Below are positions 2,459 through 55,224 of a DNA stretch of 64,000 bases, one piece after another. The DNA lies in the NCBI GenBank assembly GCA_023898465.1, contig CP060223.1:448001-512000 (forward strand), written 5' to 3'. The notes under the pieces were generated by a model. It was not told where the DNA came from, searched no databases, and was given only the letters and a program-made list of their open reading frames with translations. The translations under genes were made by a program, and so were the position numbers. Position 1 is the first letter of the stretch. Each line of letters begins with the position of its first letter. The stretch is from Candidatus Nomurabacteria bacterium. GTDB taxonomy: Bacteria; Patescibacteriota; Patescibacteriia; HK-STAS-PATE-3.

Positions 2459-2594
2459 ACAGTAAGGCCACCGAAGTAATAATAATTCCAACGCTTAATC
2501 CTAATAAAGGCGCTTGGTTTTCGATACTGGCTGGCAAAAGCAAGCGAAATAGCCAAGTAAAAAAATGTGCTGGAGCATATACTATGTCACTCAT
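2400..2594 (-). CDS. Small hypothetical transmembrane protein (64 aa)
   Basis: Its start overlaps the stop of the upstream GT4 in an ATGA-type overlap at 2591-2594, suggesting translational coupling, and it has one or two hydrophobic helices. It overlaps the 3' end of the convergent gene by 59 nt, so it may be spurious. Confidence 0.25.
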   Translation of the reverse strand: MSDIVYAPAHFFTWLFRLLLPASIENQAPLLGLSVGIIITSVALLFILRWLLGSDTRRNRELDR

Positions 2595-3667
2595 ACACCA
2601 AGAGTAAAGTGGTAAATTTTTCTTCGTAGGTCTGCCCAGCTCGGCATAGTTTGCGCGTACTTACGAGCTGCATCACTCATACCCGAAACAACCTCGTCAT
2701 GGCGAAGCATTTGATACATTGCTTGCTCAAGCGCCTGTGCATCATTTGTTGGAATAAGTACGCCTCGCTCATTGTCTCCAATTAATTTCGGCACACTTCC
2801 CACCCGAGTGGCAATTACGGGCGTTCCCAGGGAAAACGCTTCAATAATAACACGTGGGACCGCTTCACTTAATGAGGGTAAAATAAGCGCCTGACTTCGT
2901 GCCATTTCACGCAGGACTTCATCATGAGACAGCTCTCCCAATATCTTAATGTGAGAAGCAAGCCATAAGTCTGTGCGAATCTCTTTTTGCAACCATTTGA
3001 GATCTTTTCCTGTTCCGATAATTTTTAGTTGGCAGGCTGTGTTTGTCTTACCAATTGCCCGCATAGCCTCAATTAATACATCTAAACCTTTTGCTTTTTT
3101 AAGTAAGCTGCCCACAAAGATAAATTGATTTGACTCTCGTCTTGGAAGATCCTTTGGTAAGGTGCTAGGAACGAGAGAAGAAATTTCTAAAATGCGTGCT
3201 TCGGCAATTCCCATATCACGGATTCTCTGCGTTACCGCCTCACCAACGGTCAGGTATTTTGGCTTACGTCCGAAACGCAGCAGCCAGAGTGGCGCTTGCA
3301 TATCTTGCACGTCGTAAACTATTGGTATTCCTAATGTTATACTCGCAAAAACTACCCCTAAGGTTATTGCCGTACTAGAATGCACTTGCACGACGTCAAT
3401 CTTTTTTCTAAGGCGAAAAAAAAGTATCCAAAAAAAAGTCCACAGTGGTAAAAGGAGTATGCGGATGAGAAAAAAAGAGCGCACCACACTCGGCAGAGCA
3501 GGGTGAAAATGTATGGATGATCCTGTGATTTCCTTTCCAGTCCAGGTAGTCAATAGATGCACCTCAAGATGCTCGGGGACTTCTGCCACGAGTTCTGCAT
3601 AATATTGGGCTGCCCCGCTTCCTTCGGGTGGAAAGGAAGGTGTGACAATAAGGAGTCGCTTACTCAT
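2591..3667 (-). CDS. Glycosyltransferase family 4
   Basis: Starts MSKRLLIVTPSFPPEGSGAAQYYAELV. C-terminal half reads FIFVGSLLKKAKGLDVLIEAM...LPSLSEAVPRVIIEAFSLGTPVIATRVGSVPKLI, the GT4 EX7E-type region. The likely start is at 3667 (internal Met of the 375-aa track ORF), 4 nt from the upstream stop. Confidence 0.8.
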   Translation of the reverse strand: MSKRLLIVTPSFPPEGSGAAQYYAELVAEVPEHLEVHLLTTWTGKEITGSSIHFHPALPSVVRSFFLIRILLLPLWTFFWILFFRLRKKIDVVQVHSSTAITLGVVFASITLGIPIVYDVQDMQAPLWLLRFGRKPKYLTVGEAVTQRIRDMGIAEARILEISSLVPSTLPKDLPRRESNQFIFVGSLLKKAKGLDVLIEAMRAIGKTNTACQLKIIGTGKDLKWLQKEIRTDLWLASHIKILGELSHDEVLREMARSQALILPSLSEAVPRVIIEAFSLGTPVIATRVGSVPKLIGDNERGVLIPTNDAQALEQAMYQMLRHDEVVSGMSDAARKYAQTMPSWADLRRKIYHFTLGV

Positions 3668-4688
3668 GTCGCTCTTCCTTGAGCCAACGTACGATCGCGT
3701 CAGCCATAGCATCAACATCCCCTGGAGGCACTAATTTTCCTTTACCACGAAAAACCTCTGCATGCGGTCCCACACTAAAAGCAATAACAGGCTTAGCAAA
3801 CTCTTGCGCCTCGGCAAAAGGCAGGTTAAAGCCCTCCCATTGTGTCGCAGTGACATAGAGATCGCAGGCTGCGTAAAACTTTGGCAAATCTTCGTCTGAC
3901 ACAAAACCGATAAAATGCGTATGTGGTCCAGCTGCCCGTTTCAGTTGCGCAAGATATTTCTCAAAAGTTGCTTTTCCTACAATTAACAAATGCGCATCCG
4001 GAATTTGCTCACGCACTTTACTAAATGCACTTAAGAGCATGTGAAAACCTTTATGCGGAGATAAGCGCCCAACAGTAAGTAGGACTGGCGCATCACCCAG
4101 CTCCAGATGCGCGCGAATTTCGTCACCCGAAACCGCTTCACGAAATCGCTCCTTATCAACCGTGTCATGTACGACACGCGAGACGCGACCTGTTTCTTCT
4201 TTACATACTTCTGCTAAAAAGCGACTAATAGAAATAATCTCATCCGGATCTCGTAAGGAGCGATTCGTTAGCCAGCGAAAAATCGTGATGTATATTTTTT
4301 CAGTCCAAGTAGAAAAAGTATTAGCTGGTGGAATGCCGTGATTGTAGTAGACATAGCGAGTTCCCCACTCTCGCTGCATTTCATGTGCTAAAGCGTTGAG
4401 AGGATACTGATGACTATACACCGTATCCTGCTTTCCTAAGCTTTTCATAGCTGAACGAATTTTTGCTCGATCTAGAGCAAAAAACCCTAAGCGATACACT
4501 CGCTGCCAAAAAAGCGACTTCGGCATACCCAACACAAATACCTTGTAATGCTCACTCTTCATGTCACCCTCTAGACACACGACCGTCACTGTATGACCCT
4601 CCGCACTGAGCGACTCAGCTTGTTGTGCCACAACTCGATCAATTCCAGAAAAGCGAGAAAATGTACCGGTAAGTAAGGCTATATTCAT
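3660..4688 (-). CDS. Glycosyltransferase family 4
   Basis: MNIALLTGTFSRFSGIDRVV...LLTVGRLSPHKGFHMLLSAF...TATQWEGFNLPFAEAQEFAKPVIAFSVGPHAEV, typical GT4 motifs. Overlaps both neighbouring genes by 4 nt. Confidence 0.8.
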   Translation of the reverse strand: MNIALLTGTFSRFSGIDRVVAQQAESLSAEGHTVTVVCLEGDMKSEHYKVFVLGMPKSLFWQRVYRLGFFALDRAKIRSAMKSLGKQDTVYSHQYPLNALAHEMQREWGTRYVYYNHGIPPANTFSTWTEKIYITIFRWLTNRSLRDPDEIISISRFLAEVCKEETGRVSRVVHDTVDKERFREAVSGDEIRAHLELGDAPVLLTVGRLSPHKGFHMLLSAFSKVREQIPDAHLLIVGKATFEKYLAQLKRAAGPHTHFIGFVSDEDLPKFYAACDLYVTATQWEGFNLPFAEAQEFAKPVIAFSVGPHAEVFRGKGKLVPPGDVDAMADAIVRWLKEERHE

Positions 4689-5819
4689 CCTAGTTGCGAA
4701 TAAACGCTACGAAGCTTCTGTCCGATTTCCTGCCAGTCATAGCGTTGACGGGCTAAGTTCTGACCAGCTTCACCTAGCTGACGCGCGTAATCATCATTGC
4801 TCAATATCGCTCGTATTGCGTCCTCAAGCGCGTGCGTATTTCCTGGAGGATATAAAATGCCACCTACCCCATTTTCAGTAACTTCGAGGGTGGGTGGCAA
4901 CTCGCTACTTACATAAGGCGTGCCAAGGGCCATTGCTTCAGCCAAGACAATCCCAAAGCCCTCAACTGAGGAAGGGAGACAGAGAATATGACTCTTTGCC
5001 ATTGTTTCTAAGACATCGACATGTTTTTCCACGAAGCCGGAAAAATGCACTCGATCCGAAACACCCAGCTGCTCAGTTAGGGCTTCTAACTTGGCTTGCT
5101 GTGGACCGCTACCGATAATTTTCACCTGCAGATTTGGCATATCATTCCGCAGCTCAGCTACTACTTCCAATAAATCAGGTATACGTTTGTAATTCACTAG
5201 GCGGCCAACAAAACAAATAGTTGGGTCATCATAGCGTTCAAGGTTTTTAGGCAGACGAGTGAAGTCAACTCCGTTTGGTATTACGGCAATACGCTTTGGA
5301 TCCATACCATGCCGCAATAGCTTCGCACGAGTAGCGGTACTCACTGCGATAACTTTATCCCAAAGGAATTTTAAAAAGCGGCGTTCTACAAATTCACCGA
5401 AGAGACTAGAAGAAAACCAAGGTTAGCCCGCCACTCACCTATCCACACATCATGATAGGTTGCTACCGCGCGAATTTTCTTTTTCTTGGCAATAGTGATA
5501 GCTGCTTGATAAAGCAGGAAATTTGTCCCCTCAACTACGTCAATATCTTTTTTAAGCGCAGTTGCAATCACATTACGCATAAATATGTAGCGCTTCAGTA
5601 AACCGCCTGATTGAGTGAAAGAACGCGAGGACCGCAACGAATAACCTCAATACCAGGTAGTGGTTCCTGAGTCAGGTGTCCTTCTTGTGCGGCAATGACA
5701 GTTACTTTATGCTCTTTTGCTAACTCTAGTGCCGAGTAATATGTGCGTGCTTCTACACCGCCCCGAAAATCAAGATCTGCTGTGTATGGGAAAAATTCTG
5801 CAAGAATGAGGATCTTCAT
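4685..5819 (-). pseudogene. Glycosyltransferase family 4, disrupted by at least two frameshifts
   Basis: Three consecutive minus-strand ORF fragments tile one GT4: 5595-5819 (MKILILAEFFPYTADLDFRGGVE, N-term), 5386-5637 (middle, ...ATYHDVWIGEW) and 4685-5344 (C-term, ...VIPNGVDF...CLPSSVEGFGIVLAEAMALGTPYV). Frame changes lie near 5600-5640 and 5345-5390. Confidence 0.6.
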
Positions 5820-5820
5820 A

Positions 5821-6155
5821 TTATTCTTTTTTATCCGTTTCTTTACGTAGTGCTAACTCGCGGACAATCGTGGTTATCTCCTGTTCCAAATGTTCAATCT
5901 TCATCATCACTCGGAACAGCGCATACACTAAACCAATGACCGAGATGTAGAGAATAGCATCGACGCCTCGTCCAACGCCGAGGAATTTAGCAAGATACTC
6001 AGTTAATCGAGGTAAAAGGACTATAACACTGATGCCCAGCCAAATAAGAAGCCAAAAAAGAATTCTTTGGCAGTAATATCCTTTTTGCGTAACGATATGC
6101 AGTCCGTACAACCACGAAGAAGGCAAACACAATAACGAGAATCTGTATCAGCATA
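5821..6155 (-). pseudogene. DUF2304-like small membrane protein (GtrB/DPM-synthase partner), frameshifted
   Basis: The N-terminus MLIQILVIVFAFFVVVRTAYRYAKRILLPK reads from ATG (rc of 6153-6155), 3 nt after the GT2 stop. The remainder (FWLLIWLGISVIVLLPRL...KIEHLEQEITTIVREL) is in another frame. The switch falls at an A6/T6 homopolymer near 6054-6059. Confidence 0.45.
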
Positions 6156-6158
6156 GTC

Positions 6159-6838
6159 TTATTTCAATAATCGAAGTAATAACAATCGAAAAAAAGTTCT
6201 TACACCCTCTCCAAAACTCTGTCCTTTTGACATTGAGTATTCAGTATAGATTGCAGCAATTGGCACTTCGCTTAGACGGAAAGCGTGCCGCTTCACCTCA
6301 TACATTATTTCCGTAGACACCTCCATGCGATTTGACTGCAGATGCAGGGTGCGAGCAGCCTGTCGAGTAAACTCCCGGAGGCCTGACTGACTATCACTCG
6401 TCTGTAATCCAAACATGAATAAGGTGATCCGATTTCCTATCGCGTTATACAGCCGACGACGCAAAGGCATCCTAGGCTGCGTCTTATCGCGGACAAGCAT
6501 ACGTGAGCCTACAACAACATCAGCTACACCTTTTTCAAGCGGCTCAATAATGCGTAGTATATCTTTTGCTTCATGCTGACCGTCAGCATCAAAGGTAACA
6601 ATGTATTCTGCGCCAGCTCGGATGGCAGCCTGAATGCCGGTAGCAAGCGCTCCACCAAGACCTCGATTAATGAGGTGGCGATACACCCGTGCACCTGCTG
6701 CTTGAGCTATCTGACCACTACCGTCACTAGAACCATCGTCAATAACAAAACATCCGGCGTGACTGCACGGACTGCGCGCACCACATCAGATATAGTCTTT
6801 GCTTCGTTAAATGCAGGAATAACAATTGCCACCTTCAT
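6159..6838 (-). pseudogene. GT2 polyprenyl-phosphate glycosyltransferase (DPM synthase/GtrB-like), frameshifted
   Basis: The N-terminus MKVAIVIPAFNEAKTISDVVRAVRAVTPDV from ATG (rc of 6836-6838) runs into a stop. The continuation VIDDGSSDGSGQIAQAAGARVYRHLINRG...FDADGQH...SRM is in the frame of track ORF 6159-6686. A single-base deficit sits in a T4 run near 6748-6756. Confidence 0.55.
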
Positions 6839-6987
6839 GGCACAAATTACTCTACTAAAAAGCGGTCAAAAATGCAAGGGGTCACGCTATAAAAAATCCA
6901 AACTTAGCGTGCTGATTAATAAAAACAACGTGCCTTTGTGATCACGCCTATTGTGACTTGTCACTTTAGCCACTATGATGATACCGA

Positions 6988-8267
6988 ATGCCACTCCCAA
7001 ATCCGCAACTCCAAAACTTATATACTGACGCAAAAAAGGATTTTACCTTAGCCTTTCGCACTGGGATGCTGCACCTATTAAGCAGTTCCGGTATTGTCCA
7101 AATCTCTGGCTTTGTGGTTACACTTGTGCTTGTCCGCGTGCTCAGCACGGAATCGGTCGGGCATATTCGCCTCATTCATTCCGTACTGGACTTTCTCATC
7201 CTCTTAGGTGATTTTGGCTTAGCCATGGCGATGTTGAAATATATTGCCGAGCCAAATGACGAGGAGGAGAAAAAATCACTGCTTAGTCATGCCAGTTACG
7301 GAATTCTTTTCACTTCTTTGCTCACAGCCCTTCTGGCTTTTGGACTAAGCTTTATACCAAACTTAATTGGCGATGCGACAGCGCAAGCAGCGTTACGTTG
7401 GATGGTTTGGCTGATCCCCTTGCGACGCTTTTGGCATAGTTGTGCACTGGGAACATGGCCGAAAAAGAATCAAGCAAAAAGCATGGTATGAATTAGCCCA
7501 GCGGCTTGTACTTGTTGTCCTTACCTTAGGTGGACTTCTTTACGCTGGATATTCAGGATACCTCTACGGATTCGCTATTGGTATGGCACTTGTGACGCTT
7601 ATTTTACTGAGCCGACTACCCCAAGGCTGGTGGAGCCATCGTATGTAAAAGAAAAAATGCGCAAGCTTTTTGCTTTTGGCTGGTACGCCATGCTGGCCAA
7701 TCAATTCCAAGTTGTTGTAGTAACTGCTGATGTCGTCATGATTAGTTTACTCACTCGCGATGCGGTTGATGTGGGAATCTACAGTGTGATGGCGCTTTCA
7801 TCCGAGGACTTTGGATACTTCCAAATGCCATCATGCAAACTGCGCTTCCATATCTCTCGGAACAATCTGCTGATACGAATCAATTACAACAGAGCATCAA
7901 ACGGATCAGCACAAAATGGCCATGCTGATGCTGCCACTCTGCGCCTTACTTTTCTCCTGGCTCCCACGCTTATCCCTTACTCTTTGGAAGAGACTACGAG
8001 AGTGGAATAAAGGTCTTTCAGGTTCTGATCCTCTCACTCTTTTTCAGCTCATTGGCCATGGTCAACTATACCGCGCTTTTAAGTTTAGGTAAGGTAAAAT
8101 TTAACTTTTATACAGTACTTATTGAAGCCCTAGTCAACATTGTCTTGAATTACTGGCTGATTTCGCAACTTGGGATGATCGGTGCTGCCTGGGCAACAGT
8201 GGTCACCTTTGCACTACGGTATGGGATAAACTCATTTTTCCTCCGACGACAGCTTAAAACTGCTTGA
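6988..8267 (+). pseudogene. Wzx-type polysaccharide flippase (MOP superfamily), multiple frameshifts
   Basis: Track ORFs 6988-7491, 7442-7648, 7630-8010 and 8052-8267, plus an unlisted frame reading LPNAIMQTALPYLSEQSAD, each carry consecutive Wzx-like segments (VRVLSTESVGHIRLIHSVLDF...; ...DAVDVGIYSVMALS...; ...GMIGAAWATVVTFALRYGINSF). That implies at least 4-5 frame changes over 1.3 kb. Confidence 0.6.
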
Positions 8268-8368
8268 CAAAATAGAGGGATTTGCTAATTTCTGCGTGAC
8301 GGTGGCGACCTGACAAAGGGGCCGCTGTATTCATGTTGAGTAAAGTACTCACATGAGGCACGCACGTT

Positions 8369-8398
8369 GACAATCTAAACTAACGAAGCGTAAGTTGC
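8369..8398 (+). promoter_or_regulatory. Sigma70-like promoter candidate for the GC-rich cassette
   Basis: Perfect TTGACA at 8369-8374, a 17-18-nt spacer, and a weak -10 (TAAGTT) at 8393-8398. A GGAGG Shine-Dalgarno at 8406-8410 lies 5 nt before ATG 8415. Confidence 0.3.
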
Positions 8399-8414
8399 GC
8401 GTTTGGGAGGATGC

Positions 8415-8960
8415 ATGAAAACGCTCAGTTTTTTGCTGATGTTGCTTAGCTTTGGCTTGGCAACACCGAGCTTGGCACAGCTCACGCTGCGCCATGGGAC
8501 ACTCATGCCAGGTAATGGTATGAGTGAATCAGCGCAATACCGTCTGGTGAGCGTCATCGGATGGGCTGACCTTAGCCAACATGCCGATACTACTTGGGTA
8601 CTGATCGAAGGGCCGTGGATTCCTCGGAACCATGACACCTCGGCAGTGGGAGGACCTGAAACTCAGGCACACCGCCTAAGCCTCTCGAACATTCAACCCA
8701 ATCCGATTGGTCAATCCGGTCTGATTCACTTCAATGTCCCTGGGATCAATGGAGAGAAATCGCCCCTTACCATGGCAATCTATGACGTCACCGGGCGTCG
8801 AGTACGCACACTGGTCTCAGGCGAGATGCAATCCGGTCCACAGGTTGCTATCTGGGATGGACGAGACGACAGTGGAAAGGCGCTGGCGAATGGCATCTAT
8901 TGGTGCCAAATTCAGTGCAAAAACAACAGGGCAACCAAAAAGCTGGCGGTTATCCGCTAA
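8415..8960 (+). CDS. Small secreted protein with T9SS/Por-type C-terminal sorting domain (TIGR04183-like CTD)
   Basis: Signal peptide MKTLSFLLMLLSFGLATPSLAQ. The C-terminal ~75 aa (LSNIQPNPIGQSGLIHFNVPG...MAIYDVTGRRVRTLVSGEMQSGPQVAIWDGRDDSGKALANGIYWCQIQCKNNRATKKLAVIR) fit the type-A CTD pattern. The ATG is preceded by a GGAGG SD. Confidence 0.6.
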   Translation: MKTLSFLLMLLSFGLATPSLAQLTLRHGTLMPGNGMSESAQYRLVSVIGWADLSQHADTTWVLIEGPWIPRNHDTSAVGGPETQAHRLSLSNIQPNPIGQSGLIHFNVPGINGEKSPLTMAIYDVTGRRVRTLVSGEMQSGPQVAIWDGRDDSGKALANGIYWCQIQCKNNRATKKLAVIR

Positions 8961-8978
8961 GTAGAAGGAGATGAGATC

Positions 8979-10502
8979 ATGTTGAAGTTCCAGAGTCTCT
9001 GTATTTTGGTGGCGCTTTGTTGTGCCACGCTCGTCTTTGCTTCTGTGCCAAACCTGCTCACCTACCAGGGCTACTTGGAAGATGGTGGACAGGCAGCCAA
9101 CGGCAGCTACAACGTCACCTTCCTGCTCTACGATCAGGCAAGTGGCGGTACCAGCCTCTGGGAAGAAGTACAAACCGGTCTCGCGGTCCAGGACGGACTC
9201 ATGCAGTCATACCTCGGCCGGATCACGCCGCTTCCCAGCAACCTCGATGAGATCGAAACCCTCTATCTCAGCGTCGTTGTGCAGGGTGACACTCTGCAAT
9301 CACGCACCGAGCTCGCTTCTGTCCCCTACGCCTTCCGCGCCAAGCTATCTGAACACGCAGTCTATGCTGATTCGGCCGGAAATGGCGGAGATAGTGGTAG
9401 TGGATTCTGGGCAGCGAACGGCAACGATATCCATAACACCAATTCTGGGTTTGTGGGGATCGGGACGGAGAATCCAAACGAGCCCCTACATGTTGAAGGA
9501 CAAGGCATAGATTGGGCTGCCAGATTCACAAACAGTGATGGAAGCAGCAGCTCAGACGTGCGCTTGGCCTACAGAACTGGCGCTGGCATCTACATGAACA
9601 CCACTGGAACTACTAGTGGGTACTTCATGAACTTGAAGCATGAAGATCTCACAAAGGTCTATCTCACGAAGTCAGGCTACCTTGGGCTTGGTACGGATGG
9701 TCCAATTTCACAGCTCCACGTGGTGAACCCGGTCAACGCGGGGGCTGGAAACATCTTCAACATCGACCGAACGAACGACGTCACAAAGCAAACCTACATG
9801 GGCTTCCGTACGCACACGCTGCAGGACGCCTTCATAGGTGTGCCGGCAAACACGACCAACACGCTCACCTTTGGGTATGCCGGAAGCGCCGAGCTTATGC
9901 GTTACAACGCAAACGGGCTCGGTATTCGCACCACCAATCCGCAATTCACACTCGATGTGAACGGGAATACCAATTCAAGTCAGTACTACCTGGCCGGGCA
10001 CCAGATCGCCTACACTACTGGCGGCGGATCTCTCTTTCGTCTCAAGGACCCAAGCGGTGCAGACCGTGTTGAGTTCCAGGGGAACGGAGGCGATCTGCTC
10101 TTGGTGGGACCTGTCCGTATCAACGGCGACCTCTGCGTCACTGGTCAGAAAAACCGTATTGTGGAAACACCTTACGGCACTCTGGCTTTGAATGCTGAGG
10201 AATCGGCCGAAGCTTGGTTCTCTGCCAGCGGCGAAAGTCAGCTGGAAAACGGCCGAGCCCAAGTCGAGCTGTCTGAACGCTTCCTCGCGACCGTGGTCGT
10301 TTCTGATGAGCATCCTATGCAAGTCAACGCGACCTTCTATGGAGCGCACGGCGGCGGATGGTACGTGGAGCGTGGGCTGAACAGCTTCACTCTCGTCGAC
10401 CCCAGCGGGAGTAATGCACCGTTCACTTGGACGGTCAAAGCTCGCCAAAAAGGTTACGAAGACGTGAATCTCCGCGTTGTCGCGCCAACAGATGGGAGGT
10501 GA
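8979..10502 (+). CDS. Secreted tail-fiber-domain-like repeat protein
   Basis: Signal peptide, then the hallmark N-terminal motif LTYQGYLEDGGQAANGSYNVTFLLYDQASGGTSLWEE, then repeated VGIGTENPNEPLHVEG, LGLGTDGPISQLHVVN and LGIRTTNPQFTLDVNG units as in phage tail-fibre/collar-domain proteins. AGGAG SD sits 8 nt upstream of the ATG. Confidence 0.6.
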   Translation: MLKFQSLCILVALCCATLVFASVPNLLTYQGYLEDGGQAANGSYNVTFLLYDQASGGTSLWEEVQTGLAVQDGLMQSYLGRITPLPSNLDEIETLYLSVVVQGDTLQSRTELASVPYAFRAKLSEHAVYADSAGNGGDSGSGFWAANGNDIHNTNSGFVGIGTENPNEPLHVEGQGIDWAARFTNSDGSSSSDVRLAYRTGAGIYMNTTGTTSGYFMNLKHEDLTKVYLTKSGYLGLGTDGPISQLHVVNPVNAGAGNIFNIDRTNDVTKQTYMGFRTHTLQDAFIGVPANTTNTLTFGYAGSAELMRYNANGLGIRTTNPQFTLDVNGNTNSSQYYLAGHQIAYTTGGGSLFRLKDPSGADRVEFQGNGGDLLLVGPVRINGDLCVTGQKNRIVETPYGTLALNAEESAEAWFSASGESQLENGRAQVELSERFLATVVVSDEHPMQVNATFYGAHGGGWYVERGLNSFTLVDPSGSNAPFTWTVKARQKGYEDVNLRVVAPTDGR

Positions 10503-10505
10503 GGG

Positions 10506-12284
10506 ATGAGATGGATTCTCTCGGTCCTACTCCTGGCTCTTGCGAGTAGTGCCTTTGCCGTACAACCAAATCTTCAGCTTCCCTTTGCTGAAGGGACCGT
10601 TCACAAATGTACGCAAGGTGCCAATGGCGAGTACTCACATCAGTACACTTCAACACGTTACGACATCGATCTAGACACGATCAACAATGGCGATGAAACG
10701 TTGTACGCCCCAGTATCCGGAACCGTCTATCTGCATGATGAAGGTGAATCCGGATTCGGAAAACACGTAAACATCGACGTTGGAGACAACACTTTTGTTC
10801 TCCTTGGGCATTGCAAGAGCTTTCTTGTTTCTGATGGACAGCAGATAACAACAGGGATGCCTGTTGCGCTTGAAGGCTGTACAGGAAATTGTTACGGTGA
10901 TCATGTACACTTTGGTCTGCACACTGGAAACCCTCAGATAGGCGCTTCAAGTAGCACATCAATTGTTGCCGAACACATCTGGGCTAGGGATGTGACCGCG
11001 GGTGGAGAATTTCGATTCTTCCGAAGCGATGAATTCATAGGCGATTTGACTAGTGGCCACAACTACGAGACTGGCTATTTAGGCACACCCTACCTCTGTT
11101 CTCCTGCTGGTCAAGATCCACCCGCTGCCCCGCCATTCTGGACCAAGCCTGGCGACATCAAATCATACTTGGCGAGATTCAGAAATACGGGAACGGCAAC
11201 GTGGATTGATAGCGGAGGCGTTGGTACGAATAACTACGTTGAACTACGATCGGTGTTTCAGAACGGCACACCCAAAAACTGTTGGCTTGAGCCAGTAGAT
11301 TGGATTGGGTGCCCTGCATCCTGCAACACTCAACGAGTAACCTCGTTTGACGAAGGGACAGTCGCTCCTGGTCAAACTGCAACATTCACCTTCCAGGCAC
11401 GAACACCAAATGTTCCAACTGACCTTGACGGTGAAGTAGTGTACTTCCGCCCCTTCCACGGAGCAGACATCGGAATCGACGGATGGGGGGAGATGAACTT
11501 CCTTATCTATGTCGACGCCGACGCGCCGCAGGTCCCGCCGAACTTGAGCGTGAACCCGTCAGACTGCACGAGCACCAACTCGTTCTTCTTTGACTGGGAT
11601 GCTTCGAGCGACGTGGGTAGTGGACTGGATCTCTACGAGTGGCAAATCAACGGATCTACACCGAACTCCACGACTAGTACTTCGGTACAAGTGAATGGGA
11701 GTCAAAGCGTTCACCCGGGCACCAACGTCTTCTACGTCAGAGCCTTGGATAAGGTCGGAAACGTGAGTGGAATGGCCACGGTGGAATTCTGCTTCGAAAC
11801 CGACTGCAACCTCAGCTTCAACCGAGACGACGACGGCAATAGTGTGCCTGACGGATGGACGGCTGACCCTCATGGAGGTTCAAGCTATAGCTGGCCGCCT
11901 GGAGGCATTGGAAGCAACTCACACTACGTACGTATTGTGAACGCTGATGGAGATGATTGGATGATCTATACTCGCACCAACTGCGATCAGATCACGCCAG
12001 GACAACTCTACCGAATCGGCTTCTGGTACAACACCACCTCCACGGCTCCGTTCGAGTGGGCACTGTTCAAGAGTAGTGTTTCAACTGGTCAACGAAGTCT
12101 GAACGCCCTCGTGAGCAACCCAACCGCAGACGGGCAGTGGCATCAATTCCAAAGTGAACCCTTCACAATCAACTCCGGCGACCTCAGCACCTACCCGAAA
12201 TTCGGGGTAAAGGTACCGCCGGGATCTGTCGGAACCTTCAACTTCGACGAGGTCTTCTTCGTTGAAACTGAGCTGTGTCAATAG
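10506..12284 (+). CDS. Secreted M23 family metallopeptidase with C-terminal Fn3-like and carbohydrate-binding-like domains
   Basis: Signal peptide MRWILSVLLLALASSAFA. The M23 motifs are HVNIDVGD (HxxxD) and GDHVHFGLH (HxH). The downstream SDVGSGLDLYEWQING segment is Fn3/PKD-like, and a ~190-aa beta-rich C-terminal domain follows. Confidence 0.65.
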   Translation: MRWILSVLLLALASSAFAVQPNLQLPFAEGTVHKCTQGANGEYSHQYTSTRYDIDLDTINNGDETLYAPVSGTVYLHDEGESGFGKHVNIDVGDNTFVLLGHCKSFLVSDGQQITTGMPVALEGCTGNCYGDHVHFGLHTGNPQIGASSSTSIVAEHIWARDVTAGGEFRFFRSDEFIGDLTSGHNYETGYLGTPYLCSPAGQDPPAAPPFWTKPGDIKSYLARFRNTGTATWIDSGGVGTNNYVELRSVFQNGTPKNCWLEPVDWIGCPASCNTQRVTSFDEGTVAPGQTATFTFQARTPNVPTDLDGEVVYFRPFHGADIGIDGWGEMNFLIYVDADAPQVPPNLSVNPSDCTSTNSFFFDWDASSDVGSGLDLYEWQINGSTPNSTTSTSVQVNGSQSVHPGTNVFYVRALDKVGNVSGMATVEFCFETDCNLSFNRDDDGNSVPDGWTADPHGGSSYSWPPGGIGSNSHYVRIVNADGDDWMIYTRTNCDQITPGQLYRIGFWYNTTSTAPFEWALFKSSVSTGQRSLNALVSNPTADGQWHQFQSEPFTINSGDLSTYPKFGVKVPPGSVGTFNFDEVFFVETELCQ

Positions 12285-12320
12285 CTTGGAGGGGCTATTC
12301 CAGCATACATCGCACTTTCA

Positions 12321-12358
12321 CGCGCCTTCAGGCCAGCAACTTGGAGGCGCGTTTTTCT
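12321..12358 (+). terminator. Rho-independent terminator closing the GC-rich cassette
   Basis: Stem cgcgcct (12321-12327) pairs with aggcgcg (12345-12351) around a 17-nt loop, followed by TTTTT (12352-12356). Confidence 0.45.
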
Positions 12359-12361
12359 TAC

Positions 12362-12390
12362 TTTTCAAAATGACCAATTTTTAGTATACT
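12362..12390 (+). promoter_or_regulatory. Weak sigma70-like promoter candidate upstream of 12425 gene
   Basis: TTTTCA (12362-12367), a 17-nt spacer, then TATACT (12385-12390). An AT-rich leader follows with no clear SD. Confidence 0.25.
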
Positions 12391-12424
12391 CTAGCCTGAA
12401 CTTTTATCCTTTTTTTGCCAAAAA

Positions 12425-13936
12425 ATGTCAGAAAAACAAGAGAAGGCCAGTCGCTACCTCATTTCTATAGTAATTGGCTTTTTTATTGTATTTGGATTGG
12501 GTTTGCTAAACAAAAACCTTGCGTTTTTTGGTCAAAATCTTAGTTTTTCCCTTGATTTTCCTGCAAATGATAAGGTGCTCAGAGCTCTTCCAGCCATCAA
12601 TGAAACTACAGAAATTGGCGAGAACCCTGCAAACGGGAAGCAGTACGCGATTCAACGTCATACCATAACGACGCCCGAGACCAATATTTGGCTAAAAATA
12701 CCAGAAACACTGCAGTTAAGCGAAAAAAATCATCTCAGCGTTTCAACTGAATTTGATCCCAAACACCTCGATAGTTTAGAGCTTTCACTCGTCCACCCCA
12801 GTGGAATTAGCTATGACCTAGGGCCAATATACTCCGCCCAGCTCGAAGCTCTAGAGTGGAGCTCAATCACCCAGGACGGCGTTACTCTGTGGCAACGAAA
12901 CCCAAGCTACGCATCCATACAGGATTTCTACAAAAACCCACCGAAATCTGATGCAGAAACGCCTGTAATTGCCACTTTTCATGCCGCTCTCAATCCAGTG
13001 CTCCAGAGCGAATTTCTCGCTAATCTTCCTGAAAAAAAGCAATTAGAAAGTTCCCTACCCTATCTCGAGGGACCTTATACAACCTATACCCTGCTATTGG
13101 AAAGCGGCTCTCTTCATATTCACCTAGATGTACAGGAGCTTAATTTTTACGAAGGACCAGATCCGACCGAAATAAACGTTTTTGATCAATCTGGTGAGCT
13201 AATATATGTCACCACGCTTCCAGATGATGGCGTAGTAAGCGCCTCTAAAGTTCGAACCCCACTTCGTGCTATAGATTTTACCCTCGAGGGGCTTAATCCT
13301 GGAATGTATCGAGTTGAGGTTGATAATCCAGATATTCAGTCAAAACTAAGCACAAATCAACAATATGTTGTTTTAGCAAGCTCCCCGTTGCTTGTTGATA
13401 ACGTGTATAACAGCAGCGCAAATCCTCTAACTCTATACACAAATTCTCAAAATATTGATTTTCCTGCCTGGCATATTGACGCCAGCGCACAAAATATCAG
13501 TTTAGATGGTCACCAGATAACACTCGCTTCTGACCGACAAGTTGGCAGCTCAGTGCACTACAGCTTCCCTAACCTCGCTACAGCAAAAAATCCACACAGT
13601 ATTCAATTAGGTACCAATCATGCACTTATTGAAATAGATAAAAGCGCTGTTATTGCTTTTGATGCATTTGCTTATTTTAACCCTTTTACTATCCCAACTC
13701 GTCGTCTCACTGCCGATACTACCAAAGATACTTCAATAGAATACGTCTTAGCACGTTACGAAAAACAAAATCCGGTGAATGGAAGATACTTGCTGAATCG
13801 CGATTTCTACTTTGATAAAAGCTTCCTCAACGAAGACAATGGCCTGCAAATACGCTATAGCGCTGATACTCGCCTGGGATCCCCTCAATATCGCCTGCAA
13901 AAAGTTGACGTCTCAATCACTCGCTCTACTGAATAA
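12425..13936 (+). CDS. Hypothetical membrane-anchored extracytoplasmic protein
   Basis: 503-aa ORF with an N-terminal TM helix (YLISIVIGFFIVFGLGLL) and no recognisable catalytic motif. Low-GC host-type composition. Confidence 0.5.
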   Translation: MSEKQEKASRYLISIVIGFFIVFGLGLLNKNLAFFGQNLSFSLDFPANDKVLRALPAINETTEIGENPANGKQYAIQRHTITTPETNIWLKIPETLQLSEKNHLSVSTEFDPKHLDSLELSLVHPSGISYDLGPIYSAQLEALEWSSITQDGVTLWQRNPSYASIQDFYKNPPKSDAETPVIATFHAALNPVLQSEFLANLPEKKQLESSLPYLEGPYTTYTLLLESGSLHIHLDVQELNFYEGPDPTEINVFDQSGELIYVTTLPDDGVVSASKVRTPLRAIDFTLEGLNPGMYRVEVDNPDIQSKLSTNQQYVVLASSPLLVDNVYNSSANPLTLYTNSQNIDFPAWHIDASAQNISLDGHQITLASDRQVGSSVHYSFPNLATAKNPHSIQLGTNHALIEIDKSAVIAFDAFAYFNPFTIPTRRLTADTTKDTSIEYVLARYEKQNPVNGRYLLNRDFYFDKSFLNEDNGLQIRYSADTRLGSPQYRLQKVDVSITRSTE

Positions 13937-14168
13937 GCATAAGTCCTAGTGTCGCCAAAATAAAAGGCATAAGCAACCAAATAAGCGGTATTGTATAAAT
14001 GATGAATCCAGGCAGGACAAGTTCTAGTAAAAAACCTAACGCTGATACCACCGCGCTAATGATAAAAAAGCGTTGTATAAAAAATATCCAGGATGTTTTC
14101 GCTGATTGAAAAGGATGAAATTGCATAACGTTAGTATAAATCTCCCTTGCAGTATACCCCTTTCTCAT
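13926..14168 (-). CDS. Small hypothetical two-TM membrane protein
   Basis: 80-aa ORF with two hydrophobic helices, divergent from the glycan locus. May start at an internal Met (MQFHPF). Confidence 0.3.
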   Translation of the reverse strand: MRKGYTAREIYTNVMQFHPFQSAKTSWIFFIQRFFIISAVVSALGFLLELVLPGFIIYTIPLIWLLMPFILATLGLMLIQ

Positions 14169-14230
14169 TATTTACGTAAATTTTCAGGACGCCTGCTTCT
14201 GCTCAGCACTGCGATTCCTCAGCCCCTTCC

Positions 14231-15187
14231 ATGAACTACCTTATTACCGGTTCCGCAGGATTTATTGGATCACACCTCTCCACCACCCTCTTAGCACAAG
14301 GACATCGCGTCATTGGGATTGATGATCTGAATGATTACTATTCTGTTACCCAAAAGCAAGAAAATATAACGCAGCTCAAAGAATTTTCTGAATACTCCTT
14401 TCTTCAATGCGACATTCGTAAACCAGAAGAAATAAAAACATTTCTGCAAAAATATTCACAACCAATTGACGCCATTATTCACCTTGCCGCTCGGGCGGGA
14501 GTGCGGCCTTCAATTGCGAAACCAACCCTTTATACTGATGTAAATGTAAATGGCACTGTGCAAATGCTTGAGCTTGCTCGGGTTTTTCAAATCCCTAAAT
14601 TTATTTTTGCCTCCTCCTCTTCGGTCTACGGTAATCAAGAAAAAACCCCTTTTAGTGAAACAGATGCTGTTGATACACCGATATCACCTTATGCGGCAAC
14701 AAAGCGAGCTGGTGAATTACTTAGCTACACTTATCATGCATTGCACGGCATGAGTGTGGCCTGTCTACGCTTTTTTACCGTATATGGACCAAAAGGACGG
14801 CCGGATATGGCGCCCTACCTCTTCGTTGATAAAGTGCATCGTGGCGAAGCTATTACAAAATTTGGCAACGGAGAAACGCGCCGAGATTACACCTATATTG
14901 AGGATATTATCTCTGGAATTCTCGCAAGTCTACAAGCTGATATTGGTTACGAAATTATTAATCTAGGTAACTCTCATACGATCTCATTAAATGAATTTAT
15001 CGCAACAGTAGAACGAGTAACTGGAAAAACGGCTATTGTTGACCAACAGGGTCCCCAGCCGGGTGATGTGCAACAAACTTTTGCGGATATTACGAAAGCA
15101 AAAAAACTGCTTGGTTACGATCCAAGCACCGCAATCGAAAGCGGTCTCCAACATTTTTATGAATGGTATAAACGTTATCGCGTATGA
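14231..15187 (+). CDS. NAD-dependent nucleotide-sugar epimerase/dehydratase (extended SDR)
   Basis: [10 protein letters not shown] Rossmann motif near the N-terminus, YAATK catalytic YxxxK, and FIFASSSSVYG. Confidence 0.8.
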   Translation: MNYLITGSAGFIGSHLSTTLLAQGHRVIGIDDLNDYYSVTQKQENITQLKEFSEYSFLQCDIRKPEEIKTFLQKYSQPIDAIIHLAARAGVRPSIAKPTLYTDVNVNGTVQMLELARVFQIPKFIFASSSSVYGNQEKTPFSETDAVDTPISPYAATKRAGELLSYTYHALHGMSVACLRFFTVYGPKGRPDMAPYLFVDKVHRGEAITKFGNGETRRDYTYIEDIISGILASLQADIGYEIINLGNSHTISLNEFIATVERVTGKTAIVDQQGPQPGDVQQTFADITKAKKLLGYDPSTAIESGLQHFYEWYKRYRV

Positions 15188-16146
15188 ATGAAATAACAAC
15201 CACTAAAGCATTTTTTTCAGTCGTCGTACCGGTCTATAACGAAGTCGAGGCTGTGGCTAGTCTTCATGCTGAGATTCTTCAGATCATGCAGACGATGCAA
15301 AAACCTTTTGAGATTATCTTTGTAGACGACGGAAGCAGAGACGGCACATTTGAAAAATTACAATCTCTACATCCGATTACGATTATCCGTTTGCGAAAAA
15401 ACTTTGGACAGACCGCTGCACTGGACGCTGGTTTTAAACATGCTCAAGGGGAAATTATTTTTACCCTGGACGGTGATGGACAAAATGATCCAGCAGACAT
15501 ACCTGGACTTTATGCGAAGATTGAAGAGGGGTATGATGTGGTTTCTGGGTGGAGAAAAAACCGAAAAGACACTTTTTCGAAGCGCTTTTTGTCTCGTGGA
15601 GCAAACTTCCTTCGCGGATTTCTAGTAGCAGATAAAATTAAAGACTCTGGCTGCACGCTCAAAGCATATCGAAGAGAATGCTTCGAGGACTTGGACCTCT
15701 TCGGTGAAATTCATCGTTTCATACCGGCAATTCTAGCGTGGAAAGGTTTCCGCATCGGCGAAATAGTCGTTAATCATCGCGCTCGAACCACTGGCCGAAC
15801 AAAATACAACTGGCGCCGCGTGATAAAAGGTTTTGTCGATATGGTAAGCGTCTGGTTTTGGCGAAAATACTCTAGCCGTCCTCTCCATCTTTTTGGCGGT
15901 CTTGGCATATTGGCTGGAGCCGCTGGTCTCGTCTTAGGACTTTACCTTGCCATTGCTCGACTAATGGGAATTATCTCACTCCAAAACAGCATCTGGCCAT
16001 TGATTTCTGTTTTTCTGATCCTAGCTGGCATCCAATTATTTATTTCTGGACTCCTGGGTGATATTGCTATCAAGACTTACTACAACGGCAAACGGCAAAT
16101 CTACACCATACGTTCAATTACCACATCGCGTAGAGAAAATTCATGA
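15184..16146 (+). CDS. GT2 polyprenyl-phosphate glycosyltransferase (GtrB/CsbB/DPM-synthase-like) with C-terminal TM helices
   Basis: FSVVVPVYNE...IIFVDDGSRDGT...DGDGQND GT-A motifs, then two C-terminal hydrophobic helices (LHLFGGLGILAGAAGLVLGLYL; PLISVFLILAGIQLFISGLLG). ATGA overlap with the upstream gene. Confidence 0.8.
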   Translation: MNEITTTKAFFSVVVPVYNEVEAVASLHAEILQIMQTMQKPFEIIFVDDGSRDGTFEKLQSLHPITIIRLRKNFGQTAALDAGFKHAQGEIIFTLDGDGQNDPADIPGLYAKIEEGYDVVSGWRKNRKDTFSKRFLSRGANFLRGFLVADKIKDSGCTLKAYRRECFEDLDLFGEIHRFIPAILAWKGFRIGEIVVNHRARTTGRTKYNWRRVIKGFVDMVSVWFWRKYSSRPLHLFGGLGILAGAAGLVLGLYLAIARLMGIISLQNSIWPLISVFLILAGIQLFISGLLGDIAIKTYYNGKRQIYTIRSITTSRRENS

Positions 16147-17273
16147 GTCGAATACTGTTACTTAATTACGAGTTTCCACCTCTTGGTGGTGGCGCTAGTC
16201 CACTTAGCTACGAGCTAGCTCGAGGATTTGTGCAAAATGGCCATTCAGTCACTGTTGTCACAATGGGCTATAAAACCCTCCCTCGATATGAAGAAAAAGA
16301 CGGTATGCGGATCTTTCGACTCCGTTCAGTTCGAGCAAAAAAAGAGATATGTACGCCATGGGAACAATTCACATTCATCATCTCCGCTTTTTTCTTTTTC
16401 ACAAACCATTTAAAAAAAGAAAAATATGACGTTAATCATACGCATTTTTTAATACCTAGTGGAATTATTTCATGGTGGCTCAAAAAAAAATATCAATTGC
16501 CTTATGTCGTTACCAGTCACGGTAGTGATGTTCCTGGCTTCAACGATGATAGATTTAAGCTTCTTCACAAATTTACCGGCCCAATACTCCGCTTGGTAAG
16601 CAATAATAGTGATAAAATTATTGTTCCCTCAAAATATCTAGGAACCCTCATTGAAAAGAATATTAATTCTGCATTACATAGTAAAATTTATTACATTCCT
16701 AACGGCATAGATGAAAAGAAGTTTGTGCCACAAGAAAAGAAAAAAATCATTCTTTCCACTGGACGATTATTACCAAGAAAAGGTTTTCAGTATTTGATAA
16801 ATGCAATGGCAAAAGAAAACTTGGGATATGAATTACACATTGCTGGTGATGGTCCTATGATGACAGAACTTCAAAAGCTAGCAAGTAACGCAAAAAGTAA
16901 AATAGTTTTTCATGGTTGGCTTGATAATCTTAGCCACGAATACAAAGAACTTCTTGAATCCGCTGCCATTTATAGTTTGGTTTCACCTAAGGAAAACGCA
17001 AGTGTCGCCTTACTTGAGGCGATGAGCGCGGGCTGCGCTATAATCACCAGCAGTTCGGGTGGAGCAGCAGAAACAATGGGTGAGGCCGGTATTACCATAG
17101 AAGCAAAAAACCAAACAAGTATCAATGAAGCGCTGCGTCATCTCACCACCTCCAGTGAAGAGATTCAACGCTTAGGTCAACTTGCCCGCAAACGCGTGCT
17201 TGAAAAATTTAGCTGGACAACTGTATTTCATCAATATAATCAACTATTCACACCTTACGGAGTTAAACTATGA
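16143..17273 (+). CDS. Glycosyltransferase family 4
   Basis: ILLLNYEFPPLGGGASPLSYELARGF N-terminus and LSTGRLLPRKGFQYLINAM...SPKENASVALLEAMSAGCAIITS C-terminal GT4 region. Confidence 0.8.
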   Translation: MSRILLLNYEFPPLGGGASPLSYELARGFVQNGHSVTVVTMGYKTLPRYEEKDGMRIFRLRSVRAKKEICTPWEQFTFIISAFFFFTNHLKKEKYDVNHTHFLIPSGIISWWLKKKYQLPYVVTSHGSDVPGFNDDRFKLLHKFTGPILRLVSNNSDKIIVPSKYLGTLIEKNINSALHSKIYYIPNGIDEKKFVPQEKKKIILSTGRLLPRKGFQYLINAMAKENLGYELHIAGDGPMMTELQKLASNAKSKIVFHGWLDNLSHEYKELLESAAIYSLVSPKENASVALLEAMSAGCAIITSSSGGAAETMGEAGITIEAKNQTSINEALRHLTTSSEEIQRLGQLARKRVLEKFSWTTVFHQYNQLFTPYGVKL

Positions 17274-18151
17274 AAAAGATAAAACTGCTATTCATCCTTG
17301 CCTGGCGAAATCTGCGTTGGACTTTTATTAAAGCAATTCACCTAAATGGCCAAATATCCGTACAAGTGTATGGAAAGAAAATTGTTCTCTATCTTAATCG
17401 TGTTGGATTAGACATCAAGGAGAATAATATTTTTAAACAGCTCGCTTTAGATCATAATCGCGAAGCTGAGGCCTCTAAGGTAATGCTAGACTTTATCGAG
17501 CCTGGAGACGAAATTTTTGAAGCCGGCGCAAATATTGGCTACTACGTTTTACTTGAAGCGAGTCGACTACAAGGCCAAGGTAAAATTTACGCAATTGAGC
17601 CAGATCCTAGTAACTACGAGCTACTTAAAAAAAATGTGGAGTTAAATGAACTGCAAAATTATGTTGATGTCCGTAAACTATCGGTCAGCGATAAAGTCGG
17701 TCACTCAGAATTTTTCCTAAGTAAGGATTCTAACCTGCACAGCTTCCTTCCGAGCGAAAATGATGAAGAGAGAACCTCAATTATGGTAGAGACAACTACC
17801 ATTGATGCCTTCTTAGCAGATAAACCAAAGGTTAACTTTATCCGAATGGACATAGAAGGCTATGAATGTCGAGTTATTTATGGGATGAAACAATTCCTTG
17901 CTAAGCCTGGCCCTTTAAAACTTTTTATTGAGCTGCATCCAAAGCTGGTTTCAAGGGAAGAAATGTTGAATTTGCTTACCATTTTGGAAGAAAGCGGTTT
18001 CACTATACATAAAGCAATCTCGCGAGATAACTATCTTCGGAAGCAGCTAGGACAAACCACTGTTGAGGAAATGACTATGGCTGAATTAAAGAGCGATCCG
18101 CGCTTGCTGGAAGAAAAACGCTCATTTGAAATGTTTTTCATAAAAAAATAA
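17270..18151 (+). CDS. FkbM-family SAM-dependent methyltransferase
   Basis: EAGANIGYYVL...IYAIEPDPSNYELLKKNVELNEL...SVSDKVGHSEF...FIRMDIEGYE, the FkbM-domain signature. Confidence 0.75.
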   Translation: MKKIKLLFILAWRNLRWTFIKAIHLNGQISVQVYGKKIVLYLNRVGLDIKENNIFKQLALDHNREAEASKVMLDFIEPGDEIFEAGANIGYYVLLEASRLQGQGKIYAIEPDPSNYELLKKNVELNELQNYVDVRKLSVSDKVGHSEFFLSKDSNLHSFLPSENDEERTSIMVETTTIDAFLADKPKVNFIRMDIEGYECRVIYGMKQFLAKPGPLKLFIELHPKLVSREEMLNLLTILEESGFTIHKAISRDNYLRKQLGQTTVEEMTMAELKSDPRLLEEKRSFEMFFIKK

Positions 18152-18152
18152 C

Positions 18153-19031: not shown

Positions 19032-19032
19032 T

Positions 19033-43743: not shown

Positions 43744-43753
43744 ACTTGTACAA

Positions 43754-44518: not shown

Positions 44519-44519
44519 G

Positions 44520-45137: not shown

Positions 45138-45143
45138 AGCTCA

Positions 45144-45863: not shown

Positions 45864-46032
45864 ACAAATCCCCTTTACATTAATTACAACGCCTTGAGTG
45901 TACCTGATTTTATAAAAAAAGACTAGAGAATAATATCGAGAGATTGTCAACTCTCTACCAAAAAGCCCCAGTTGGTACTGGAGCATGATTGGTATCGCCG
46001 GCTTACTAAGGAATTCGGCGAGAAGTTCTCAA

Positions 46033-54530: not shown

Positions 54531-54578
54531 AACCTTTTTTGTTTTTCTTTTGCTTACAGCGCTTAACGCTGTACGTTT

Positions 54579-55183: not shown

Positions 55184-55224
55184 CAAAAGAAAGACGCCTG
55201 CACTCAAATGAGTAACAGGCGTCA
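55184..55224 (-). terminator. Rho-independent terminator downstream of lipoprotein gene
   Basis: On the minus strand, gacgcctg (55217-55224 rc) pairs with caggcgtc around a 15-nt loop, followed by UUUCUUUUG (rc of aaaagaaag at 55186-55193). Confidence 0.5.

Follow-up and report, generated by a model that had tools for sequence, protein, structure and literature searches.

What use could a bacterium of the candidate phyla radiation (CPR) have for a protein carrying the sorting domain of type IX secretion systems (T9SS)? To our knowledge, CPR bacteria possess neither an outer membrane nor a T9SS. The question is raised by a cassette of three genes in a 64,000-nucleotide stretch of DNA (hereafter the window; contig CP060223.1, positions 448,001 to 512,000, forward strand) from Candidatus Nomurabacteria bacterium, a CPR member with a closed metagenome-assembled genome (MAG; 1,082,586 bp, locus tags H6760_*). 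The genes encode, in order, a mini-protein with a T9SS-type C-terminal domain (CTD), a fibre resembling phage tail fibres, and a protein in which an M23 metallopeptidase head precedes a long stalk. We hold, with moderate confidence, that the cassette is a cell-contact module obtained from unrelated bacteria, a three-gene operon combining an adhesive fibre with a partner protein and a wall enzyme, and one member of a rare triad. Each of its parts is of a known kind: a T9SS CTD, a MAT-like (MAT, mosaic adhesive trimer) or phage-like fibre, and an M23 peptidase. What the searchable literature does not describe is the operon as a whole, the strict pairing of mini-protein and fibre, the stalk with swappable heads and the capture of the set by two CPR lineages; nor did it yield anything on the module in connection with CPR or the T9SS, or on piggyback export by the T9SS.

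A foreign operon in a surface-polysaccharide locus

The initial annotation had pointed to a GC-rich, foreign-looking block at ~8.3-12.4 kb, and sliding GC content, GC content at third codon positions (GC3) and tetranucleotide usage all bore this out. In 500-nt windows the GC content was 0.51-0.58 across 8251-12250, including the highest 2-kb GC content of the whole 64 kb. The flanks were indeed lower in GC, at about 0.40-0.47, so that the ~40% given for them before was slightly low. GC3 of the three genes was 0.56, 0.63 and 0.55, respectively, while typical sampled host genes had 0.32-0.44. The tetranucleotide distance between cassette windows and the remaining window reached z = 5.7-5.9, and the correlation of GC-normalised tetranucleotide usage was 0.34 at the cassette, compared to about 0.78-0.88 over most of the window. 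These outliers support the earlier notion of a horizontally acquired islet, and the cassette is compositionally foreign. Its closest relatives have a GC3 of 0.68-0.78; that the cassette already lies below these values (0.55-0.63) suggests a period of residence without loss. Its composition is still far from that of the host, and amelioration is therefore incomplete.

The cassette is inserted into a surface-polysaccharide locus, with wzx on one side and the following gene of the locus on the other; its flanks encode glycosyltransferases, Wzx and an epimerase. Polysaccharide loci are frequent landing sites for foreign DNA. Around the cassette only short chance repeats were found as possible insertion signatures, and no integrase or tRNA gene was present at its boundaries. 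A short-read contig of the Logan collection (L001, SRR12358676, 27.5 kb) aligned to window positions 1817-20502 with 99.845% identity over 18.7 kb and was colinear across both cassette boundaries. Whether from one sample or from two, the sequences are separate assemblies based on different read technology. All three cassette reading frames are intact in both assemblies, with one substitution across ~4 kb.

The same alignment changed the view of the upstream region, which had been described as a decayed Wzx block. The window differs from the short-read contig by 12 indels, every one of them a single-base homopolymer deletion on the window side (5408-7973). These deletions fragment the genes for a family 4 glycosyltransferase (GT4), a DUF2304 protein, a family 2 glycosyltransferase (GT2) and Wzx. 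In the short-read contig Wzx is whole (428 aa), and the GT4 gene is likewise intact. Because all 12 indels are homopolymer deletions, the apparent decay is a long-read consensus error and not pseudogenisation. Homopolymer errors in long-read MAGs can thus mimic gene decay, a lesson for annotation.

Within the GT4 gene, 14 substitutions are crowded into 100 bp (5282-5381), while the remaining 18.6 kb of the alignment contains three. This tract looks like the product of strain-level recombination in a surface-glycan gene.

The three genes are separated by gaps of 18 nt (mini-protein/fibre) and 3 nt (fibre/third gene). Strong Shine-Dalgarno (SD) sites had been noted before and were confirmed for each gene (GGGAGG, AAGGAG and GGGAGG, respectively), with an SD-to-ATG spacing of 4-8 nt; the third site overlaps the end of the fibre gene. 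For the mini-protein the listed open reading frame (ORF) begins at TTG 8403; the ATG at 8415 has the SD site and is the choice of the gene callers. The predicted intrinsic terminator, a strong one, was found again at the end of the operon (Table 1). Less clear is the promoter. The TTGACA hexamer named in the initial annotation occurs twice upstream, and neither copy is paired with a -10 element reaching the scan threshold. Heuristic reading of the N-termini (not SignalP) revealed a Sec-type signal peptide on all three proteins (SLA/QL, VFA/SV and AFA/VQ), and no lipobox, LPXTG motif or additional transmembrane segment turned up in any of them in a heuristic scan. This organization supports the view that the genes form a tightly coupled, probably co-transcribed set of secreted proteins.

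Table 1. Features of the cassette; positions refer to the 64,000-nt window.
Feature	Position	Strand	Description
TTGACA hexamer, candidate -35	8264..8269	+	overlaps the Wzx stop codon; no -10 meeting the scan criteria
TTGACA hexamer, candidate -35	8367..8372	+	42 nt 5' of the mini-protein ATG; weak -10 only (TAAGTT, 18-nt spacer)
Mini-protein gene	8415..8960	+	181 aa; P0098, annotated 'T9SS type A sorting domain-containing protein'; SD GGGAGG 8405-8410
Mini-protein N-module	8478..8687	+	aa 22-91; conserved, about 65-70 aa; family alignment
Mini-protein FlgD-Ig / T9SS type A CTD	8697..8957	+	C-terminal domain; HMM scores
Fibre gene	8979..10502	+	507 aa; USN53968.1 (H6760_02250); SD AAGGAG 8965-8970
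Fibre N-domain	9045..9383	+	aa 23-135; β-rich, MAT_N-like superfamily; NF053851 in relatives; AF2 pLDDT 70-85
Fibre shaft	9384..10106	+	aa 136-376; GIGT..P..L.V repeats; variable length among relatives
Fibre C-terminal β-sandwich (tip)	10107..10475	+	aa 377-499; conserved in triad; common to siphophage Tal / PblB-like tail proteins; pLDDT 80-92
Third gene, M23 head and constant stalk	10506..12284	+	592 aa; USN53969.1; SD GGGAGG 10494-10499
M23 metallopeptidase head	10605..10943	+	aa 34-146; PF01551 50.8 bits (cutoff 28.7)
Constant module (stalk)	11091..12281	+	aa 196-592, ~400 aa; NBR1-type Ig, Fn3/OmpL47-like and CBM4_9-like β-sandwiches
Intrinsic terminator	12320..12352	+	13-bp stem, 8 GC pairs, then T-run; closes the operon

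Directly 3' of the terminator, and outside the cassette, a gene for a 503-aa protein was found (12425-13936). Its GC content is host-like (0.425), its N-terminus bears a membrane anchor, and it has its own promoter-like site (12362-12390); no Pfam, NCBIfam or PHROG family matched it.

The mini-protein gene lies beside N-domain fibre genes across phyla

The first gene had been interpreted as encoding a signal peptide, a short module and a T9SS CTD only, and this stood. The CTD scored 26.8 bits with TIGR04183 (cutoff 23) and 39.7 bits with PF13860 (FlgD_ig, cutoff 27), while PF18962 remained just under its gathering threshold (24.4 bits, threshold 27). Five other mini-proteins were tested with TIGR04183, and all five exceeded the cutoff (27.4-37.7 bits). 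The domain also matches the C-terminal region of PorU as well as FlgD structures. The sorting tag is confined to the mini-protein; fibre and hydrolase have Sec signals only, so the earlier statement that these two are delivered with a T9SS tag is too simple.

No Pfam family matched the N-module of the mini-protein. Profile searches with the whole mini-protein yielded many proteins of 175-200 aa, and a hidden Markov model (HMM) of the N-module only also matched 95 of the 120 best. Named members of this family derive from Zixibacteria, Calditrichaeota, Gemmatimonadetes, WOR-3, Krumholzibacteriia and Phycisphaerales. Like T9SS type A cargo, the mini-protein has a signal peptide and a CTD that exceeds the cutoff of TIGR04183 and contains the motifs PNP, GxY and terminal K-hydrophobic, and its relatives include T9SS-associated lineages of the Fibrobacteres-Chlorobi-Bacteroidetes (FCB) type (Zixibacteria, Calditrichaeota, Gemmatimonadetes). 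Unlike such cargo, its passenger comprises only ~65 aa without an enzymatic or adhesin domain, it appears to serve a neighbouring protein that lacks a CTD, and this copy resides in a CPR genome. Small CTD-only proteins exist, such as PorA of P. gingivalis, and the mini-protein may resemble them.

The neighbourhood of the mini-protein is constant. At each of the 11 independent loci that are informative, a fibre with the N-domain is encoded beside it; a twelfth (L007) is too short to show the fibre. Five of the 11 loci were found via the mini-protein alone (L011/L012, L013, L015/L016, L017 from WOR-3 and L018 from Gemmatimonadetes), and each of the five has an N-domain neighbour (34.9-114.6 bits), which in L015 is an S74-type fibre. 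Across six triads, divergence of the mini-protein followed that of the fibre N-domain (Spearman 0.83), while N- and C-domains of the same fibres were uncorrelated (-0.04), as judged from 15 non-independent pairs and with a C-domain that varies little. Taken together, these comparisons support a role of the mini-protein as dedicated neighbour, and probably partner, of N-domain fibres across phyla.

Lineages of the donor type encode further CTD cargo: L018 has an S8 peptidase and L011 a protein of 1101 aa. The latter (L011, 1395-4700), from the high-GC lineage of the L012 triad, is β-helix/reprolysin-like, and its CTD is similar to that of the mini-protein; that host therefore also has conventional T9SS-type cargo.

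The complete triad of mini-protein, fibre and stalk-bearing enzyme is very rare, with about eight loci in 5.8 billion proteins. Besides the window it was found in L002/L003 (two tandem units), L004 (two units), L005, L006 (Candidatus Kerfeldbacteria), L007 and L011/L012. The pairing of fibre and hydrolase, noted initially from this locus alone, is thus real and conserved elsewhere. Full-length relatives of the fibre are very few, and all occur in the same gene arrangement. In an all-against-all BLASTP comparison the mini-proteins were homologous over their full length, whereas the fibres (338-788 aa overall) had conserved ends and variable shafts; units are repeated in tandem in L002 and L004, and L005 and L012 encode two fibres apiece. 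Searches with a stalk profile recovered about six full-length carriers among the 5.8 billion proteins, one of them in a Candidatus Kerfeldbacteria MAG. Pattern scans for the fibre tip returned one locus each from genomes and metagenomes, and the Kerfeldbacteria locus was the sole match among 185,579 species-representative genomes; since such scans need exact patterns, these counts are lower bounds. The GC content of the relatives' hosts ranges from 37% to 70%. In L002 the cassette is likewise GC-richer than its polysaccharide-locus flank, and in L005 it lies within a contig of ~70% GC. The flanks of L002, L005 and L006 gave only distant matches to the genome studied here; their hosts are therefore not close relatives of it.

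The fibre combines a cellular N-domain with phage-like shaft and tip

No Pfam domain was detected in the fibre. PF13884, which had been suggested for it, was absent by HMM search, and the tip is therefore of the non-S74 type. The proposed tail-fibre-like identity was confirmed by PHROG matches to shaft and tip. Residues 149-339 of the shaft matched phrog_18345 (tail fiber, E 1.7e-9) and a tail fibre of cyanophage S-PRM1, and residues 377-499, comprising the tip, matched phrog_6616 (E 1.5e-10) and a PblB-like tail protein of phiFL3A. Fold searches with the fibre led to tailspikes of phages, pyocin fibres and tail proteins of siphoviruses, in each case to their distal domains (30 matches in BFVD at E ≤ 1e-3). 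Matches of its domains in the PDB were weak (best E 2.4e-3), and sequence searches found no solved relatives of them. An AlphaFold2 (AF2) model of the monomer was confident only for aa 25-112, which are β-rich, and aa 391-495 (predicted local distance difference test, pLDDT, 70-85 and 80-92, respectively).

The tip is 34% identical to the C-terminus of a Tal protein from a viral contig, L010 (IMGVR_UViG_3300045988_090798). This contig represents a genuine siphophage, with genes for the major head protein, major tail protein, tape measure, Dit, Tal, fibres and endolysin. Its Tal-type tail-tip protein (6237-8351, 704 aa) ends in a β-sandwich of ~120 aa like that of the cassette fibres. The presence of the tip domain on this protein shows that the domain has been exchanged between phage tail tips and cellular fibres.

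A different relationship was found for the N-domain. MAT fibres of Bdellovibrio bacteriovorus consist of a conserved N-domain, a shaft and an exchangeable tip, and the surface partner of the N-domain was left unidentified (Caulton et al. 2024, PMC10769870). The corresponding NCBIfam family, NF053851 (Bdello_MAT_N), matched five of eight triad-family fibres (best E 2e-8). An exhaustive profile search with the N-domain retrieved 86,175 clusters at E ≤ 1e-3; among the top nine cluster representatives seven matched NF053851, one of them above the cutoff, and several end in S74. These matches support the assignment of the fibre N-domain to a superfamily that includes the Bdellovibrio MAT fibres.

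The cassette fibre shares with the MAT proteins the order of signal peptide, β-rich N-domain of ~110-130 aa, shaft and C-terminal tip. Both are mosaic and phage-tail-fibre-like with an exchangeable tip, and the N-domains are homologous at the superfamily level; among MAT tips, that of the cassette fibre would count as a non-S74 type. In contrast to MAT proteins, the N-domain scores far under the curated cutoff (19.4 versus 60 bits), the fibre has only half the typical length (507 aa versus about 1,000 aa) and the tip is conserved within the triad and not hypervariable. Moreover, the fibre is encoded together with a CTD mini-protein and a modular hydrolase, a combination not described for MAT proteins in the literature searched, and its host is a CPR bacterium and not a predator.

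Compared to phage Tal proteins, tail fibres and tail-associated lysins, the cassette has a shaft matching cyanophage fibre families, a tip common to siphophage Tal/PblB-like proteins, the combination of an adhesive fibre with a peptidoglycan hydrolase, and modules swapped among relatives. It differs in that no triad or pair locus has a virion context, Sec signal peptides are present on every component, N-terminal attachment relies on a domain of the cellular MAT type and not on a baseplate adaptor, and the hydrolase stalk is absent from viral contigs. Judged from these homologies, the most fitting view of the fibre is that of a MAT-type chimera of cellular origin with borrowed phage shaft and tip modules.

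A constant stalk carries exchangeable heads

The M23 assignment of the third protein held, with PF01551 above its cutoff, and the head has relatives in the PDB, namely 9gy1 (E 1.8e-10) and LytM. Of the two zinc-binding motifs reported initially, HxH is present (H133-V-H135); the canonical HxxxD is absent, the sole H...D match (H87VNID) being misplaced. Catalytic His104 is present in both the LytM/9gy1 and the family alignments. At the position of the first zinc-ligand histidine, the protein has D53-I-D-L-D57 according to the LytM/9gy1 spacing, or N60 in the family alignment, where relatives have HNGRD or HTGDD.

For the Fn3-like and carbohydrate-binding domains proposed behind the head, fold searches gave backing, while the HMM scores were below threshold (OmpL47-type, 30.1 versus 40 bits; CBM_4_9, 17.6 versus 25.9 bits). 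The immunoglobulin-like (Ig) part of the stalk is of the NBR1 type, PF16158 being detected in its homologues. The AF2 model of the stalk was mediocre (mean pLDDT 59); its β-sandwich folds are supported by Foldseek. The head in front of this same stalk varies: it is M23 in L006 and L002 unit A as in the window, a NAGPA-like domain in L004 and L002 unit B, and CHAP in L005. In the third protein of L012 the stalk follows a head without family assignment.

With M23 bacteriolysins of the LytM/lysostaphin type the enzyme shares secretion, the M23 fold with HxH and catalytic His, and the fusion of the head to non-catalytic binding domains. It differs from them in the non-canonical first zinc ligand, in a targeting part made of a 400-aa Ig-Fn3-CBM-like stalk and not of SH3b, in the NAGPA or CHAP heads that this stalk bears in relatives, and in the position of the gene, which is always 3' of a fibre gene. 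A constant stalk with exchangeable heads represents a compact natural design for modular wall enzymes and may help to engineer targeted lysins.

The NBR1-type Ig domain (PF16158), which makes up the first ~100 aa of the stalk, is widespread in secreted proteins, with CAP, PQQ-dehydrogenase, B-lectin and S8 domains as fusion partners. Carriers with a name come from Chloroflexota and CPR, and the domain looks like a common extracellular module.

A possible mode of action

How could the three products work together? In donors with an outer membrane and a T9SS, the mini-protein would most likely bind the fibre N-domain and supply a sorting and anchoring domain in trans. The T9SS exports folded proteins that need a folded CTD (PMC9251779). 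A C-terminal CTD of its own is not open to the fibre, because its C-terminus is a functional tip or an S74 chaperone. The stalk of the enzyme might dock on the conserved fibre tip or bind target glycans, and would thereby present the exchangeable wall-cleaving head. In the CPR host, all three products would simply be Sec-secreted because there is no outer membrane, and the fibre and hydrolase could act as a surface or extracellular set on a contacted cell. Such a set may bind the envelope of another cell, for example the host cell of an episymbiont, and cut its wall locally. That the cassette products would grip and open other cells is plausible; contacts between mini-protein and fibre and between fibre and enzyme, the target cell and the catalytic activity are all inferred.

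More tentatively, the mini-protein could be a trans-acting T9SS sorting and anchoring adaptor, whose ~65-aa module binds the MAT-type N-domain and whose CTD exports and tethers the folded trimer; in two CPR lineages this module, together with the head-swappable hydrolase, would have been captured and would work without a T9SS in attachment to and opening of host cells. If this were true, the adaptor would be the missing 'surface element' of the MAT study for T9SS-bearing phyla and the first case of piggyback export by the T9SS.

Whatever the exact mode, attachment of CPR episymbionts and the breaching of their hosts' walls are largely obscure, and the cassette offers a concrete, testable candidate. 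The adjacency of mini-protein and fibre in WOR-3, Gemmatimonadetes, CPR and other groups likewise gives a testable answer to what anchors the MAT N-domain at the surface, and the pairing hints at T9SS cargo whose sorting domain is supplied in trans.

Alternative explanations

Several observations weigh against a functional cell-contact module in this organism. Since the host belongs to the CPR, the CTD cannot act as a sorting signal in it. Indeed, as the initial annotation had stated, T9SS machinery is missing from the window: the scan of window genes, from 64 kb out of a 1.08-Mb genome, found neither a T9SS component nor a second CTD protein. The lack of the first zinc-ligand histidine means that the head could be inactive, like degenerate M23 proteins of the EnvC/NlpD type. 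On the window fibre NF053851 reached an E value of 7e-4 at 19.4 bits, well short of 60 bits, which rules out membership in the curated MAT family, though not a superfamily relation. The AF2 monomer model had a pLDDT <30 over aa 113-393, which include the shaft; the fold of the shaft and its trimerisation are putative. The pairing sample comprises 11 loci, and homology of the fibre or the enzyme had led to six of them; the co-divergence has the small and non-independent basis described above. Finally, the rarity of the triad would suit a transient passenger as well.

The cassette might accordingly be an inert passenger, transferred from a T9SS-bearing bacterium, useless in a CPR cell and merely not yet degraded. 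We regard this as unlikely, yet as the strongest of the alternatives. The CPR host, the lack of a T9SS context in the window, the incompletely ameliorated composition, the non-canonical zinc ligand and the rarity of the triad all fit such a passenger. What speaks against it is the state of the genes: all three ORFs are intact with their own SD sites and terminator, and the CTD has retained its PNP and GxY motifs and the terminal K-hydrophobic strand. Between the two assemblies the 4 kb of the cassette differ by one substitution, while a flanking glycosyltransferase gene has the tract of 14. The GC3 values, lower than those of the closest relatives, suggest residence without loss, and the triad is also intact in Kerfeldbacteria, another CPR lineage.

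Less probable still is a housekeeping function, in which the M23 protein and its partners would be an autolysin set remodelling the cell's own wall or surface layer during division or surface-glycan assembly. M23 proteins often act on their own wall, a polysaccharide-biosynthesis locus surrounds the cassette in L002 as it does here, and a CBM-like stalk could bind the cell's own glycan. Such a role is at odds with the foreign composition and the patchy distribution across phyla, with heads swapped among M23, NAGPA and CHAP, with the tandem duplication of units and with the obligate linkage of the enzyme to an adhesive, phage-like fibre. Swapping, duplication, fibre linkage and patchiness point to a diversifying module of cell-cell interaction and not to core wall metabolism.

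A prophage or tailocin remnant, in which fibre and lysin would be all that survives of a decayed phage tail module, is very improbable. The shaft and tip do match phage tail families, a siphophage Tal has the same tip domain, and M23 heads are found in tape-measure proteins and lysins of phages. However, no other phage structural, integrase or lysis gene was present at any informative triad or pair locus; here the flanks encode glycosyltransferases, Wzx and an epimerase, and repeats flanking the cassette are absent. Sec signal peptides are normally missing from virion proteins but present on each of the three, and the fibre N-domain comes from a cellular superfamily. Neither this N-domain nor the mini-protein N-module nor the stalk occurred in the viral-contig matches examined: the stalk was absent from 2.9 million viral contigs searched, and 13 apparent viral mini-proteins were merely CTDs on large proteins.

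An assembly chimera, in which a GC-rich block from another organism was joined by misassembly, has next to no probability: the abrupt composition change at each cassette end and the long-read error signatures close by would fit it, but the chimeric join considered in the initial annotation is excluded by the colinear 27.5-kb short-read contig with the same junctions on both sides (99.85% identity), the boundaries have no repeats able to produce a false join, and the terminator is followed in normal order by the promoter-like site of the next gene.

Other observations in the window

Three further regions of the window stood out. A cluster of secreted or surface proteins is encoded on the minus strand at 39731-46689; among them are a 931-aa S8 peptidase containing FG-GAP repeats, a PDZ protease of the HtrA-like kind, a protein with TSP3 repeats and, adjoining tRNA-Gln, a member of the Host_attach (PF10116)/baeRF family. 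At 50239-52581 lies the gene for a 780-aa coupling-protein-like ATPase of the TrwB/DUF853 type, possibly part of a DNA-uptake or conjugation-like system. A second compositional outlier was detected at 54500-57500 (tetranucleotide z up to 4.6, GC about 0.51), which covers a 221-aa ORF without a Pfam family (55498-56163, GC 0.55) and the start of cysS (56299-57693).

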